Assembly: GCA_041690135.1 (NCBI GenBank)
Contig: JAWLHY010000006.1
Location: 166,327 to 230,326 of the forward strand
Length of the DNA: 64,000 nucleotides
Reading direction: 5' to 3'
Source: Armatimonadota bacterium
Lineage (GTDB): Bacteria > Armatimonadota > SYMT01
Shown: piece by piece, positions 14,223 through 30,186 of the stretch
How the letters are laid out: each line of letters begins with the position of its first letter
Numbering within the stretch: position 1 is the first letter of the stretch
Made by a program: the position numbers and the translations under genes
Notes under the pieces: generated by a model
Seen by the model: the letters and a program-made list of their open reading frames with translations, nothing else
Databases searched by the model: none
Told to the model about the DNA's origin: nothing

Positions 14223-14233
14223 CCCTCGGGGGG

Positions 14234-14275
14234 ATTGCCAATTGAGAATTGCAAATTGCAAATTGCTAATTGGGA
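14234..14275. repeat. Degenerate 7-mer tandem array, 6 x ATTGnnA
   Basis: attgcca attgaga attgcaa attgcaa attgcta attggga, an AT-rich patch at the permease-permease junction. Confidence 0.9.
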
Positions 14276-27035: not shown

Positions 27036-28445
27036 TTAATCCATCTCTCGATACTCTTCCGCCAGATCTTCGAACCGGGCGTAGCGCCGCAAGAACCCGA
27101 AGCGCACGGTGCCGACGGGACCGTTGCGGTGCTTGGCGATGATACACTCCGCTTCTTCGAGCCACTCCTGTCCCGGTGGGGGCTCGGAGGCCCCGTCGCC
27201 TTCGCCGTCCCGATTGTAATAGCGCGAGCGGTACAGCATCATCACCATATCGGCTTCCGCCTCGATGGAACCCGATTCGCGAAGGTCGGAAAGCATCGGC
27301 CGCTTGTCCTCCCGGCGTTCTACACTCCGGGAAAGCTGGGAGAGGGCGATGACCGGGCAGTTCAACTCGCGAGCCATGGACTTGAGGGAGCGCGCGATCA
27401 CCGAGATTTCCTGGTTCCGATTCTCGTTCTTGCCGTGCCCGCGGATGAGCTGAAGGTAGTCGATCACGACGAGGCCCAGGCCATGCTCGCTCTGCAAACG
27501 CCGGCACTTGGCGCGCATCTCCAGCACGGAGATATCCGAGGAATCGTCGATGTAAATCGGCATGTCACCCAGGCGACCGACGGCGCGCCCGAGGCGAGTC
27601 CAGTCGCTCTCTTCGTCGTCGGTGTGGGTGCGGAGGTAACCCGTGCGGAGGCGCATCCCATCGACGCGCGCCTCGGAGCAAATCATACGATGTGCGAGCT
27701 GCTCGCGCGACATTTCCAGGCTGAAGATGGCGACCGGCACTTCCCCTTGCGCCGCGGCGTTCACCGCGAAGGCTAAACAGAGGGAGGTCTTCCCCATGGA
27801 AGGGCGGCCGGCGATGATGATGAAGTCGCCGCGCTGGAAGCCGGAGGTCATCTGGTCGAGTTGGGAGAAGCCGGTAGGGATACCGGTGAACTGGCTCTCG
27901 CTAGCCCGGACTTCTTCCAGGCGCTCCATCGAGTCCATCACCACATCGCGAATCGCCACGAACCCCTGGGTTGCCCGGCGCTGACCGACGGCGAAGATCA
28001 GGCGTTCCGCATTGTCGACGATGTGGTCCACCTCGTCTTCCTGCTCGAAGGAAGATGCGATGATTTCATTGGACGCATCAATCAGCTTGCGGAGCGTCGA
28101 CTTTTCCTTAACGGTGCGGGCGTAATACTCAACGTGAGCGGCGGTCGGCACGCTGTCGGCCAGCGTGTTGATATAGGCCAGCCCCCCCACCGCATCGAGC
28201 TTGCCCAGCCGCTTCAGCTCTTCCGGAACCGTCAGAAGATCGCATGGCTTGTCCCGCTCGGCCAGGTACGCGATGGCGTCGTAGATACGGCGATGCGCCT
28301 CGTGGTAAAAGTCGTCGTGCTCGAGCATCTCCAGCAAGCGCTCCACCGCGGAACGGCTGATGAGCGCCGCTCCCAGGGTCGCCTGCTCGGCCTCGATGGA
28401 CTGGGGCGGAATCCGATCCGCCAGGGTGTGGGGAGTGGTCATCAT
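27036..28445 (-). CDS. dnaB: Replicative DNA helicase
   Basis: PPQSIEAEQA, GRPSMGKT, FSLEM, DYLQL, LSQLSR, SDLRESGSIE, AKHRNGP; no intein. Confidence 0.97.
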   Translation of the reverse strand: MMTTPHTLADRIPPQSIEAEQATLGAALISRSAVERLLEMLEHDDFYHEAHRRIYDAIAYLAERDKPCDLLTVPEELKRLGKLDAVGGLAYINTLADSVPTAAHVEYYARTVKEKSTLRKLIDASNEIIASSFEQEDEVDHIVDNAERLIFAVGQRRATQGFVAIRDVVMDSMERLEEVRASESQFTGIPTGFSQLDQMTSGFQRGDFIIIAGRPSMGKTSLCLAFAVNAAAQGEVPVAIFSLEMSREQLAHRMICSEARVDGMRLRTGYLRTHTDDEESDWTRLGRAVGRLGDMPIYIDDSSDISVLEMRAKCRRLQSEHGLGLVVIDYLQLIRGHGKNENRNQEISVIARSLKSMARELNCPVIALSQLSRSVERREDKRPMLSDLRESGSIEAEADMVMMLYRSRYYNRDGEGDGASEPPPGQEWLEEAECIIAKHRNGPVGTVRFGFLRRYARFEDLAEEYREMD

Positions 28446-28460: not shown

Positions 28461-28497
28461 ATGGACAATGGACAATTGACAATTGACAATTGACAAT
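28461..28497. repeat. Left arm: 5 x 7-mer AT(G/T)GACA
   Basis: atggaca atggaca attgaca attgaca attgaca at; ends 15 nt before the dnaB start. Confidence 0.93.
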
Positions 28498-28548
28498 GTG
28501 CGCCATTCGCGCTCGTGCGAATACCTGCGCTATCACAGGTGCGACGGA

Positions 28549-28926
28549 TCATTGTTCGAACCTTCGCCACTTCTCTGTATTGCGCTTTGCAGTCACCAGA
28601 GCACGGCCGATTATGTCGCATAGCTCACTACTTTCCTTCAATACAGCCACTGTGTCGGCAGGTGTCATCATCTCGCCTTTGCGAATCATCCGTAGCCAGA
28701 GACGCGTCTCGCGGAGTTCTTTCAACACGATACTCATCTTGTGGATGAAGTCGGCCCGAGACTCCGCGGCACACGCCTCTTCGTAGACAGCCGCCGGTGA
28801 CGTGCAGCAACGGACCAACTGTCCCGCGATATGTCGGCCGAGCCGGGTCTCCGGCAGACGTTCCGCTAATGCGCCAACTTTCACCGCAAAAGTAACCAGG
28901 CGGTCGGAAAGCTGCTCGGGGGTCAC
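28549..28926 (-). CDS. Four helix bundle protein (23S rRNA intervening-sequence protein / Avd-like family)
   Basis: LSDRLVTFA...LP...HIAGQLVRCCTSPAAVYEEACAAESRADFIHKMSIVLKELRETRLWLRMI; GTG start with GAGGA RBS. Confidence 0.92.
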   Translation of the reverse strand: MTPEQLSDRLVTFAVKVGALAERLPETRLGRHIAGQLVRCCTSPAAVYEEACAAESRADFIHKMSIVLKELRETRLWLRMIRKGEMMTPADTVAVLKESSELCDIIGRALVTAKRNTEKWRRFEQ

Positions 28927-28987
28927 TAGAAATCCTCATCCGTGTTAACGTTGGGGGCGGGTCGGTATGAGCAATGCGCGACTCTCC

Positions 28988-29017
28988 CAAATGACAATTG
29001 TCAATTGTCATTTGTCG
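28988..29017. repeat. Right arm: inverted 7-mer array (ATTGTCA), also a 13-bp self-palindrome
   Basis: CAAATGACAATTG-T-CAATTGTCATTTG-tcg; 28997-29016 is the reverse complement of 28471-28490 at 19/20 positions. Confidence 0.9.
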
Positions 29018-30053
29018 TTAACTTCACAGGGCGATGCCCCAACTCTTGTGAACGGAGGAAGCCCAGGAGCACCTCCAGGACAAGTCGGCCTTGTTCAGGA
29101 GGACAGGAGAGTTCGGTGACTTCGCCTTTGAGGCAGCGAAGCAATTCATCGATCCCGGCCGCGGTGCCGGTGAGCCGCATCTGGGGTTCTACCAGCCGCT
29201 GGGAGCGCCCTTCCACCGTGAGGATGGCGCCGTCCAGGTCGGACACGTGGATCTGTCCCCGGTCGCCGTAGAGGTCGAGCGCAAACCCCTTGGGGGTATC
29301 TTTACTGGCGCAAAGGAAGGCCCGTGCGCCGTTCTCAAAGTGGAGGTAAGCCGTCGCGCCGGGGTCTCCCGCAGGGTCCCGACCGCCGTCTCCGCGATAG
29401 GTAAAGTAGTCCTCGAATCCCGGGTCCAACTCCGCCCACACCCACTCCGGCCGGCTCTCTACCAGCATCAACACGGTATCGACGAGATGGCTGCCGTTCC
29501 GGAAAAGCATGGCCCGCGGACCACCCATGTAGCCGACGATACGGGTCAGTTTCCCAATCTCGCCGGCTCGTACCCGTTCGCGGACGTGGTTGTAAAGCGG
29601 GTACCACCGCCGCGTGTGGTTTACCGCCAGGAGTACACCGGCCGCGCGCGCGGCGGCAATCATCCGGTCCGCATCTTCGAGTGTGGTCGCGATCGGCTTC
29701 TCGCAGAAGATGGCTCGAACTCCAGCCTCACAGGCATCGACCACGATGTCCGCGTGGCGGTGGTCCGAGGTGACGACGCTGAGGACCTCGATTCCGCAAT
29801 CCCCAAGCATCCGGCGATAGTCCGTATAGCCCTGCGCATCCGGAAAGCGGGCGGACCAGTTCCCACGAAACTCTTCGATCAATTCCGCGCGCAAATCGCA
29901 CACTGCAGCCAGTTCGACCTCCGGCTGGAGCGCATAGGCACCCGCATGGGAGGTAGGCATCACGTCTCGGAGTCCACCCAGAAGTGGAATGGGGCTCACT
30001 CCAGCCCCTATGCCCGTCAAACCGACGATCGCCGCCCGGTAGCGCTTCATCAT
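29001..30053 (-). CDS. Gfo/Idh/MocA family oxidoreductase
   Basis: AAIVGLTGIG, CEKPIA, VNHTRRW, GSHLVD; last codons and stop lie within the 7-mer array. Confidence 0.92.
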   Translation of the reverse strand: MMKRYRAAIVGLTGIGAGVSPIPLLGGLRDVMPTSHAGAYALQPEVELAAVCDLRAELIEEFRGNWSARFPDAQGYTDYRRMLGDCGIEVLSVVTSDHRHADIVVDACEAGVRAIFCEKPIATTLEDADRMIAAARAAGVLLAVNHTRRWYPLYNHVRERVRAGEIGKLTRIVGYMGGPRAMLFRNGSHLVDTVLMLVESRPEWVWAELDPGFEDYFTYRGDGGRDPAGDPGATAYLHFENGARAFLCASKDTPKGFALDLYGDRGQIHVSDLDGAILTVEGRSQRLVEPQMRLTGTAAGIDELLRCLKGEVTELSCPPEQGRLVLEVLLGFLRSQELGHRPVKLTTNDN

Positions 30054-30186
30054 GATCATCCTGCGATCGATGCACCTCGGCGGTGCAGCGCTCATCCCAG
30101 AGCGCCACGTCTAGCCGCGTTTGTGAGCCGGTCAAAGGAGTGGATAAGGGCCATCCTCTTTCAACCGGATTCGAGAAGCTTTAGGG

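Follow-up and report, generated by a model that had tools for sequence, protein, structure and literature searches.

The cassette between an oxidoreductase gene and dnaB

A cassette of 557 nt is located at positions 28461-29017 (minus strand) of the 64,000-nucleotide stretch of DNA that was analysed (the window), where a PF05635/TIGR02436 four-helix-bundle gene is enclosed by inverted arrays of the heptamer ATTGTCA (Table 1). The cassette extends from within the TGA of a Gfo/Idh/MocA oxidoreductase gene to a point 15 nt 5' of the dnaB start, and this 15-nt gap between arm and ATG contains no Shine-Dalgarno-like motif. The oxidoreductase terminates in ...KLTTNDN, in which the ...TTNDN tail is encoded by the repeat, and the C-termini of related oxidoreductases were observed to end before such a tail. 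Every detail of the locus listed in a previous sequence-only reading of this DNA was found to be present on the minus strand.

Table 1. Features of the cassette and of the two flanking host genes (window coordinates)
Feature	Position	Strand	Remarks
Upstream host gene, Gfo/Idh/MocA oxidoreductase	29001..30095	-	Pfam PF01408 and PF22725
Oxidoreductase TGA stop	29001..29003	-	within the upstream array and supplied by it
Upstream arm	28988..29017	-	GACAAAT (29016-29010), GACAATT (29009-29003), GACAATT (29002-28996), then GTCATTTG (28995-28988)
5' spacer of the cassette	28927..28987	-	Shine-Dalgarno-like GGATGAGGA (28941-28933), 6 nt before the GTG start
125-aa four-helix-bundle gene	28549..28926	-	GTG start; PF05635/TIGR02436, '23S rRNA intervening sequence protein' family
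3' spacer of the cassette	28498..28548	-	small local hairpin, no intrinsic terminator
Downstream arm	28461..28497	-	ATTGTCA x3 and ATTGTCC x2 (28497-28463), then AT; TRF period 7, 5.4 copies
Downstream host gene, dnaB	27036..28445	-	Pfam DnaB and DnaB_C; ATG at 28445

The two arms are complementary to each other. The repeat search paired 20 nt (28478-28497 with 28997-29016) at 95% complementarity across a distance of 499 nt, and longer registers of 25 nt and 29 nt are 92% and 86% complementary, respectively. The upstream arm also forms a palindrome on its own, with 13-nt arms (28988-29000 and 29002-29014) that are 100% complementary and separated by a single nucleotide. A two-unit 14-mer was found 11 times in the window when up to two mismatches were allowed (0.09 expected from 100 shuffles), with ten of these matches located in the two arms. 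A terminator scan found no terminator-like site between 28300 and 29200, and the two promoter-like matches are the array itself read from the other strand, since TTGACA is contained in the unit. PF05635 is the sole domain of the cassette and no transposase domain was found in it by the Pfam search. No target duplication was seen by eye at the ends of the arms, and the empty sites of relatives are too diverged for a base-by-base alignment.

In the predicted fold of a 616-nt RNA, the long-range stem between the arms is present in both the minimum-energy and the centroid structures, and the upstream arm pairs with the downstream arm with a predicted probability of about 1. The predicted energy is -31.2 kcal/mol for the arm duplex and -12.4 kcal/mol for the local hairpin. 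Both of the mutually exclusive folds proposed in the sequence-only reading can be drawn, with a predicted advantage of about 19 kcal/mol for the long-range stem. A wobble test for an RNA-level stem was made on the arms of 82 loci, comprising 659 mismatches against 3019 matches, and no preference for G-U on the sense strand was observed (130 sense and 121 antisense, p = 0.61). Since this bias is absent, the wobble test leaves selection for an RNA stem unsupported, and the arms could owe their complementarity to a process acting on DNA.

The junction was compared in three syntenic relatives, where the oxidoreductase orthologs of genomes G007, G002 and G003 are 55, 51 and 48% identical to the one described here; two weaker oxidoreductase matches (L045, 40%, and L046, 35%) lie outside this comparison. 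In all three relatives dnaB is the next gene and no PF05635 gene lies between, with a spacing of 36 nt in G007, 97 nt in G002 and a stop/start overlap in G003. The empty-site check at this junction, which had been suggested together with the sequence-only reading, thus found the cassette absent from every one of them. Among 28 genomes, an IVP gene at most 1.5 kb 5' of dnaB was observed only in the host genome and in G006, a member of a sister genus. The cassette of G006 belongs to a separate lineage: its protein is 60% identical to the present one and 76% identical to an acidobacterial one, and it has a different unit and flipped arms, so that nothing specific to dnaB is conserved. The site is filled in G006 and empty in G001 of the same genus.

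The sequence-only reading had also suggested a switch controlling dnaB. Such a switch, evolved for dnaB, would use the alternative folds of the arms to couple the translation of dnaB to the upstream gene or to uncouple it. Although the dnaB start follows the arm so closely and without an SD-like motif, dnaB is equally devoid of a strong Shine-Dalgarno sequence in the cassette-free relatives, and its N-terminus here aligns with their dnaB starts. In relatives, the dnaB start overlaps the upstream stop or lies shortly after it, which suggests a translational coupling that the cassette interrupts; but the same geometry is found between unrelated genes, as 47 of 60 cassette loci have the upstream stop at most 40 nt from the arm and a stop in or beside the arm with the next gene soon after is the norm. 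For example, one cassette of the host genome with a like layout lies between two tryptophan-pathway-like genes. The second cassette before dnaB in G006 would also be expected of a switch, yet a DnaB N-terminal motif was found in the flanks of none of 109 other cassette loci (L047-L155). The predicted preference for the long-range stem over the local hairpin also argues against alternation between folds. We therefore consider the switch very unlikely. Despite its purpose-built appearance, the cassette before dnaB would be a passenger and any influence on dnaB a side effect of the landing site.

The four-helix-bundle protein and the closest known systems

The 125-aa protein matches PF05635 with 45.5 bits (cut-off 33.8) and TIGR02436 with 69.3 bits (cut-off 24). 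Its AlphaFold2 model consists of four helices with a pLDDT of 95.9, and Foldseek matched this predicted fold best to 2rld (TM 0.79/0.88, chains A-E), 2gsc (chains A, B and E) and 4dwl, and also to 8ub7. The match to 2rld_A was also found by phmmer with an E of 8.5e-12. The family background given in the sequence-only reading, namely an origin in 23S rRNA intervening sequences (IVS) and solved relatives that include Avd, is correct, since the predicted fold matches 2rld, 2gsc and Avd (4dwl). The dN/dS ratio was 0.03-0.11 in all ten computable pairs of cassette proteins, an eleventh pair being saturated at synonymous sites. The cassette protein is under strong purifying selection.

To our knowledge, PF05635/S23p has had no known function since its discovery in rRNA intervening sequences and is thus an orphan family about 30 years old, and the DGR cofactor Avd is the only studied member outside such sequences. 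Avd (PDB 4dwl and 8ub7) shares its fold and Pfam family with the present protein and, according to the entry titles, is found in a ribonucleoprotein with a reverse transcriptase. The gene might accordingly be a remnant avd of a diversity-generating retroelement, but the present locus has no nearby reverse transcriptase or template/variable repeats and the only two reverse-transcriptase matches of the genome lie on different contigs, at C2:307761 and C4:300853. The 125-aa protein also gave no match to the Avd equivalog NF033474 at E <= 0.001, and we find this origin scarcely credible.

The closest known system is the ORF-bearing 23S rRNA IVS. As described in the excerpts of PMC4990558, the IVS in helix 45 of 23S rRNA has a 28-bp stem within which RNase III cuts, and carries tandem GACAGAT heptamers ahead of an S23p ORF that was judged to be decaying and untranslated; further IVS of Leptospira and others are cited there, together with a homopentamer for the Xanthomonas protein. 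Within what these excerpts cover, the two systems share an S23p/PF05635 ORF in the loop of a terminal-inverted-repeat stem, arms of tandem heptamers with variable copy number (GACAGAT in the IVS, GACAATT here) and a total size of about 430-560 nt. In contrast to this IVS, the present cassette is located outside rRNA, between two protein-coding genes of which it supplies one with a stop codon, and its ORF has a good ribosome-binding site and relatives under strong purifying selection. The RNase III cut in the stem is known in the studied IVS and is a possibility in the present cassette. The sequence-only reading had suggested that five units could match a pentamer. This suggestion is not supported, as the longest ungapped paired block comprises 4-16 units across loci and the arrays of this genome have approximately 3 to 9 copies.

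The cassette would be read through within the operon transcript, and a stem of about 24 bp can form there between the arms. This stem may be cut by RNase III in analogy to the heptamer-built stem of the 23S rRNA IVS; the host genome has an RNase III gene (G000:C7:40732-41106). Such a cut would release the cassette RNA, and dnaB would be left on a separate RNA that begins with a short leader. We hold processing of the predicted mRNA stem by RNase III to be possible on this analogy, and propose it tentatively. In three soil-metagenome contig sets, many contigs were observed to match the heptamer array only, with unrelated flanks; these are short pieces and no joint across the cassette was found among them. 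A search of sequencing runs found none of RNA that contains the locus.

Recurrence of the cassette within the genome and across phyla

Seven of the eight PF05635 genes that score above the cut-off in this genome are located between inverted arrays of 6-8-nt units. Each of these cassettes has its own unit, which are GGCAGAA, GAGTAA, GGTGTTCG, GGATAA, GGTTGAA, ATTGCAA and ATTGTCA, and the other cassette genes likewise have SD-like motifs. Two proteins that are 58% identical have the units ATTGTCA and ATTGCAA, and the proteins of the two hexamer cassettes (C12 and C6:103422) are visibly similar by eye. The same arrangement was observed well beyond this genome. Among relatives found with the two closest paralogs as queries, 76 loci from many phyla could be tested; the inverted flank score reached or exceeded the 99th percentile of shuffles in 72 of them, and the direct-repeat control did so in 15 of 76. 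A period of 7 was found in nearly all of the tested loci. When the same flank test was applied to relatives within the phylum, 23 of 26 PF05635 loci were inverted versus 3 of 26 direct.

An ordinary resident gene could come to lie by chance between two copies of a common repeat, as the genome contains approximately 1008 arrays of 6-8-nt units and ATTGTCA is found without a gene at a dozen further positions. However, only 23 inverted array pairs within 1500 nt were found among the 1008 arrays genome-wide, and against this background stand the seven bracketed paralogs with their different units and the independent loci bracketed likewise elsewhere. We consider such a chance neighbourhood highly improbable. 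Nine other inverted array pairs that were inspected contain no PF05635-like ORF and are either non-coding repeat elements or parts of PSCyt/PSD1 genes. The arrays are therefore not exclusive to the PF05635 gene.

The limits of the cassette can be seen in six of 13 close pairs, in which the similarity begins approximately 60-130 nt before the gene and ends approximately 340-420 nt after the gene start; outside these limits it drops to about 45-50% on both sides. The other seven pairs share one or both flanks, so that the limits are not visible in them. The gene and its arms were shown to travel as one piece, reaching different gene contexts and different phyla. In a quick tree with 42 of 75 inner branches unresolved, the array units group with the protein clades, which themselves cross phyla, and on this comparison the repeat unit was shown to be clade-specific. 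If gene and arms are simply inherited together, the units would track the protein clades in any case, and binding is not required for this pattern.

The cassettes also have a fixed polarity. Of 72 loci, 63 have an upstream arm that is rich in purines on the coding strand and three have one that is rich in pyrimidines; the upstream arm of the present cassette is likewise purine-rich. Co-orientation with the neighbouring genes was observed in 23 of the 28 loci where both sides could be called, by a crude method. In addition, the order of the units is mirrored between the arms, with a z above 0 for 67 of 68 loci and a p of 0.05 or less for 34. These values are inflated, since it was the real order that had been optimised.

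Dispersed arrays and the possible role of the protein

Arrays and palindromes of cassette units are also scattered through genomes without a gene. Two tandem copies of ATTGCAA gave 35 matches in the host genome and 57 in G006 as compared with at most eight in the others (61 genomes), and both of these genomes hold an ATTGCAA-armed cassette. Similarly, GGGGAGT in two copies was found 65 times in G018 and 32 times in G059, both with GGGGAGT-armed cassettes, and at most 13 times elsewhere. For two copies of ATTGTCA, the host genome has 45 matches and G006 has 28, with at most four in the others. No ATTGTCA match was found on the contigs of G006 that bear its PF05635 matches, no cassette armed exactly with ATTGTCA was seen in this genome, and its ATTGTCA unit occurs mixed into ATTGCAA-type arrays. 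A cognate cassette may also be accompanied by few dispersed copies, as in G036 (one match) and G033 (ten matches, seven of which are its own arms). Furthermore, the host genome contains approximately 90 arrays of three related unit families (AATGCGT, AATACGC and ACGCATC), for which no cassette was detected. Some arrays of the genome lie in frame within coding genes, for example ...LTIDNSQLSIVN... in PSCyt/PSD1 proteins, PutA, a CarB-like protein and others. As far as these match counts go, the unit-rich genomes were shown to be those that hold a cassette armed with that unit, as is the case for REP with RAYT.

REP/REPIN sequences with a RAYT gene were reportedly described by Nunvar in 2010 and by Bertels and Rainey in 2011. 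The likeness to the present system is that one gene lies between inverted copies of a short repeat which is also scattered without the gene, that each gene lineage has its own repeat and that the abundance of the repeat goes with the cognate gene. The present gene, however, encodes a small four-helix bundle whereas RAYT is a Y1 HUH transposase, and the repeats are tandem arrays of 6-8-nt units where REP is one fixed palindrome. Cyanobacterial STRR heptamer arrays and Rickettsia palindromic elements are scattered 7-nt arrays and small palindromes, some of which lie in frame within genes. We know of no gene associated with either, while the units described here form the arms of a conserved gene cassette. 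In the partial text of the journals covered by our literature search, which are those outside subscription, no paper describing this architecture outside rRNA was found.

The cassette could alternatively be a mobile element acting at the DNA level, in which the arms would be terminal inverted repeats made of sub-repeats and would be moved or copied by the four-helix-bundle protein, acting by itself or together with a host enzyme. The gene-less arrays and palindromes would then be miniature derivatives or targets and the RNA stem would be incidental. The mirrored order of the units is as expected of a true palindrome and the arm mismatches lack a G-U bias, but the fixed polarity and the co-orientation with host genes would be unneeded by a double-stranded DNA mechanism. 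Filled and empty sites within one genus (G006 and G001), protein clades that cross phyla and the co-occurrence of dispersed arrays with cognate cassettes are also consistent with movement as DNA; against this, no catalytic domain was identified in the cassette, we know of no nuclease or recombinase motif in this fold, and no target duplication was seen by eye. One studied relative, moreover, is processed as RNA according to the excerpts of PMC4990558. On this evidence we regard a DNA-level element as rather unlikely.

We return to a cassette of the IVS type. The sequence-only reading had described the locus as intervening-sequence-like or a mobile cassette, which is upheld by the empty junction in all three relatives, the recurrent bracketing and the heptamer arm of the characterised 23S IVS as excerpted in PMC4990558. 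The locus is very likely an acquired cassette of this class. Our full explanation, that one copy of a widespread IVS-type cassette, whose gene has a ribosome-binding site of its own, entered the oxidoreductase-dnaB junction as a unit, is probable, though it is held less firmly. The cassette protein may act on the repeat units of its own cassette, which it would probably bind as an oligomer, with the arms as recognition sites in a RAYT/REP-like manner. That the protein recognises its own units has, in our estimate, a little less than an even chance.

The PF05635 gene was found to be almost always packaged in inverted arrays of short units, which turns an orphan family into a testable system of a protein and its own repeat. 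This system may explain short tandem-repeat DNA, including repeats that are translated inside essential proteins. A more speculative reading, to which we would give only modest credence, is that PF05635 proteins are sequence-specific binders of short tandem repeats and form with the inverted arrays a self-propagating system, where each lineage seeds and maintains its own family of 6-8-nt arrays and palindromes genome-wide, including in-frame insertions in essential genes. If this were true, the 23S rRNA IVS would simply be the copies that landed in rRNA, much of the heptamer-type repeat DNA of bacteria that is so far unexplained would have a cause, and the PF05635 family would have a function.

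Anatomy of the cassette upstream of dnaB

The arms of the cassette (see table) were found by repeat search to be complementary at 95% over 20 nt, 92% over 25 nt and 86% over 29 nt, with a separation of about 499 nt, and a perfect palindrome with arms of 13+13 bp was located at 28988-29014. When up to two mismatches are allowed, the window contains 11 copies of the two-unit word where 0.09 would be expected, and 10 of these 11 copies are within the arms. Pfam assigned the upstream gene to GFO_IDH_MocA, the downstream gene to DnaB and DnaB_C, and the small gene to 23S_rRNA_IVP (45.5 bits, cut-off 33.8), while NCBIfam placed the small protein in TIGR02436 (69.3 bits). An AlphaFold2 model of the 125-residue protein (62 relatives in the alignment) has four helices with a pLDDT of 95.9 and matches the structures 2rld, 2gsc, Avd (4dwl) and the ribonucleoprotein of a diversity-generating retroelement (8ub7). 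By both score and fold, the gene is a member of PF05635/TIGR02436. The locus had been described correctly throughout in the sequence-only reading. Identity of the protein as Avd itself was ruled out by the lack of an equivalog match and of a nearby reverse transcriptase.

On the plus strand at 28462-28497 the unit contains TTGACA, so that two sigma-70-like promoters are called in the array, with 9/12 matches each and on the strand opposite to the genes. These matches are probably without meaning, although such arrays could conceivably drive antisense transcription.

Features of the window cassette, of the PF05635 genes of the source genome (G000) and of its gene-less palindromes. Bare coordinates are window positions; C denotes a contig of the source genome.
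Feature	Location	Strand	Details
Upstream ORF, 364 aa	stop 29003-29001	-	ends ...KLTTNDN-TGA; read from sequence
Upstream arm	29016-28988	-	GACAAAT, GACAATT, GACAATT, then GTCATTTG
5' spacer, 61 nt	between upstream arm and small ORF	-	GGATGAGGA 6 nt ahead of GTG
Small ORF, 125 aa	28926-28549	-	GTG start
3' spacer, 51 nt	between small ORF and downstream arm	-	
Downstream arm	28497-28463	-	ATTGTCA x3 + ATTGTCC x2
dnaB ATG	28445	-	15 nt beyond downstream arm
PF05635 cassette	C6:194935		unit ATTGTCA; the window cassette
PF05635 cassette	C13:91057		unit ATTGCAA
PF05635 cassette	C2:458489		unit GGCAGAA
PF05635 cassette	C12:139242		unit GAGTAA
PF05635 cassette	C3:996621		unit GGTGTTCG
PF05635 cassette	C6:103422		unit GGATAA
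PF05635 cassette	C1:613508		unit GGTTGAA; gene frameshifted
Eighth PF05635 gene	C2:253259-254209 (C2:253271; L038:1489-2439)		AGGATA array on upstream side only
Gene-less in-frame ATTGTCA palindromes	C2:233729-233761, C2:386040-386079, C2:1150862-1150901, C3:340360-340385, C3:906107-906146, C6:379124-379156, C9:130710-130742, C11:134455-134489, C11:244668-244700, C23:10923-10955, C6:288514-288529		translated ...LTIDNSQLSIVN...

Inverted arrays around PF05635 genes

The source genome (9.1 Mb, 25 contigs, 65% G+C) contains ten PF05635 matches, of which eight are above the cut-off, and seven of these eight genes are bracketed by inverted arrays of short tandem units, with a different unit at each gene. 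The eighth gene combines the PF05635 domain with a C-terminal part weakly resembling NYN_YacP, a predicted RNase (23.4 bits, below the cut-off of 24.6). The closest paralog of the window protein (58% identity) is found in the C13 cassette, which shares the fine anatomy of the window cassette: the upstream TGA is within the array, the next ATG is about 13 nt past the other arm, and the flanking genes are two co-oriented tryptophan-pathway-like genes, named from their translations by eye. Among 1008 non-overlapping arrays of period 6-8, a strict test gave 23 inverted pairs not more than 1500 nt apart, and a PF05635 gene is located inside four of the pairs with a gap of 450-900 nt.

Other inverted pairs (C9:165364-165901, C13:230429-230866 and C2:1052448-1053875) enclose a common non-coding element of about 150-200 nt and no gene, and therefore arrays bracket inserts other than the PF05635 gene too. 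A weak PF05635 gene (C5:228463-228768, L040) is broken by an insert of about 150 nt starting ...CCCCGGAGGGGCGA..., and a similar copy adjoins the decayed GGTTGAA cassette (C1:613200-613330, L035); this insert is probably a small mobile element. In addition, a one-armed array without a gene (ATTGCCA, ATTGAGA, ATTGCAA, ATTGCAA, ATTGCTA, ATTGGGA) was noticed at window positions 14233-14270, immediately 3' of a stop codon, with co-oriented ORFs on both sides; it shares its unit with the C13 cassette.

The sequence-only reading had proposed a survey of the flanks of TIGR02436 genes, and inverted arrays were found at most PF05635 loci in two independent samples. Relatives were collected from species-representative genomes with peptide patterns from the two closest paralogs, and among the best 80 of 570 confirmed relatives, 76 had sufficient flank on both sides. 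Local alignment of the upstream flank with the reverse complement of the downstream flank scored at least 12.9, the 99th percentile of shuffles, in 72 of the 76, compared with 15 of 76 in the direct-repeat control without reverse complement. The paired stretch has a period of 7 in nearly all of them, with ATTGNAA or AATGNAA variants as units. On the coding strand, purines predominate in the upstream arm at 63 of 72 loci and pyrimidines at 3, and the remaining 6 have neither bias. When the best PF05635 locus was taken from each of 29 phylum relatives (26 testable), inverted arrays were observed in 23 and direct ones in 3, with units differing widely from the ATTGTCA type (GGGGAGT, AGTGAAA, GTTTCTG and AGTCGTC, for example). 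The order of variant units was mirrored across the arms in 67 of 68 loci (z > 0; p <= 0.05 in 34), a statistic biased upwards, since it was the real order that the aligner had optimised.

Insertion at the dnaB junction and transfer of the cassette

Orthologs of the oxidoreductase were found in three relatives of the same order or family (G007, 55% identity; G002, 51%; G003, 48%). In all three dnaB follows directly, after 36 nt, after 97 nt and with a GTG overlapping the TGA respectively, and both the small gene and the array are absent from this junction. The empty site expected of an inserted cassette was thus seen in 3/3 syntenic relatives. Their oxidoreductases stop short of the ...TTNDN tail, so this tail is encoded by the repeat.

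Among the 28 genomes in which 1.5 kb upstream of dnaB was available, the family profile found the gene there only in the source genome and in G006, from a sister genus. The G006 cassette (L156, G006:C491:25600-26500) separates dnaB from an old-yellow-enzyme-like gene, whereas in G001, another species of the G006 genus, the two genes are joined by an ATGA overlap; G006 and G001 thus form a clean filled/empty pair. Identity of the G006 cassette protein is 60% to the window protein, 69% to the C13 protein of the source genome and 76% to a protein from Blastocatellia. Its unit is ATTGCAA, and its arms face the other way round with respect to the gene. The G006 cassette belongs to another lineage, so that two different cassettes have reached the front of dnaB within one bacterial family. 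A rough count gives about 0.05 for the chance expectation of this, and the DnaB N-terminal motif was found in the flanks of 0 of 109 cassette loci elsewhere (L047-L155). The two cases hint at a site preference or possible hot spot, and the preferred sites are perhaps tightly coupled gene junctions.

Nucleotide similarity was profiled in 13 close pairs of loci. In six (e.g. L066/L074, L098/L126, L095/L108, L050/L103 and L059/L063) the contexts are unrelated on both sides: similarity starts 60-130 nt before the gene and stops 340-420 nt past the gene start, and beyond these limits on both sides it drops to about 45-50%, a value typical of unrelated sequence in the alignment used. The shared piece is the arms, spacers and gene; the other seven pairs have one or both flanks in common. 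The dN/dS ratio was 0.03-0.11 in all ten computable pairs (dS 0.5 to about 2; an eleventh was saturated). These pairs retain the same unit or one differing by one base, and therefore the unit is conserved far beyond synonymous sites. Furthermore, units group by protein clade and several clades combine different phyla in a quick maximum-likelihood tree, for which the careful search is unfinished and many forks are unresolved.

The sequence-only reading had also considered a switch controlling dnaB. No sign of a switch evolved for this gene was observed, as the stop/start geometry is general: at 47 of 60 loci the upstream stop and the arm are no more than 40 nt apart (median 10 nt), and a stop in or beside one arm with a start near the other is a general cassette feature. 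A strong Shine-Dalgarno sequence before dnaB is missing in cassette-free relatives too. In those relatives dnaB overlaps or closely trails the upstream gene, and thus the cassette interrupts an apparent translational coupling. With the cassette in place, dnaB might be translated by re-initiation downstream of the cassette ORF (103 nt away), from a short-leader RNA left by cleavage, or by an SD-independent start.

Predicted RNA pairing, dispersed copies and known systems

Several points were counted for a role in RNA. A terminator scan found no terminator in the cassette, which is co-oriented with both neighbours, as are 23 of the 28 loci callable on both sides by a crude comparison of longest open frames. 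In the predicted transcript the long-range arm stem forms with a probability of about 1 (-31.2 kcal/mol for the arm duplex versus -12.4 for the local hairpin), and barring the downstream arm from pairing is predicted to cost 18.9 kcal/mol. The source genome has an RNase III gene, and in the one relative studied, the 23S rRNA intervening sequence (IVS) of PMC4990558, RNase III cuts inside a 28-bp stem where tandem GACAGAT heptamers begin, a unit similar to the GACAATT of the window cassette. Against such a role, the 659 arm mismatches from 82 loci include 130 that are G-U-compatible in sense and 121 in antisense (p = 0.61), and transitions are not enriched. Selection for sense-RNA pairing is therefore not visible; the mirror symmetry might arise and be maintained at the DNA level, or result from two sets of protein sites in opposite orientation.

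The two-unit ATTGTCA word occurs 45 times in the source genome against 0 for a reversed control, in about 13 clusters, most of them compact palindromes of the form TTGACAATTGACAATT-N3-5-AATTGTCAATTGTCAA. Nearly all clusters are in frame within long ORFs and encode ...GQLTIDNSQLSIVNS... beside glycine-rich low-complexity stretches. The hosts include several PSCyt1/PSCyt2/PSD1 proteins, at two recurring linker positions, and PutA, where the insertion is in the linker that joins the two enzyme domains. Further hosts are a DUF5682 protein, a PMT_2 glycosyltransferase and a protein identified as CarB-like by eye alone.

We counted two-unit words across 61 genomes of the phylum. ATTGCAA is abundant in the source genome (35) and G006 (57; all others <=8), and GGGGAGT in G018 (65) and G059 (32; all others <=13); a cassette with the same unit is present in each of these genomes. 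ATTGTCA occurs 28 times in G006 (all others except the source genome <=4), mixed into ATTGCAA-type arrays; no copy is on contigs with PF05635 matches and a cassette with exactly this unit was not seen there. The rule is not two-way, as G036 and G033 own cognate cassettes but few further copies. No cassette was detected for about 90 arrays in the source genome whose units belong to the related families AATGCGT, AATACGC and ACGCATC. Composite repeats with units of these families, at C1:79480-79830, C1:172060-172330, C1:332660-332920 and C1:118360-118680, alternate short heptamer arrays (GCGTATT, ACGTGAA, GCGTAAT, TCACGCA and similar) every 77-85 nt with a conserved segment that is G+C-rich and about 50 nt long; no PF05635 gene was found beside those inspected.

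Literature searches yielded no description of arrays around PF05635 genes outside rRNA; the heptamers of one IVS are already published (PMC4990558). The window cassette has its arm design in common with ORF-bearing 23S rRNA IVSs and may, by analogy, work in a similar way, but these are defined by a location in 23S rRNA which it does not have. It is also like the REP/RAYT system in layout, though not in enzyme. The abundance of REP sequences goes with the cognate RAYT gene, and the dispersed copies of the cassette units follow the same pattern.
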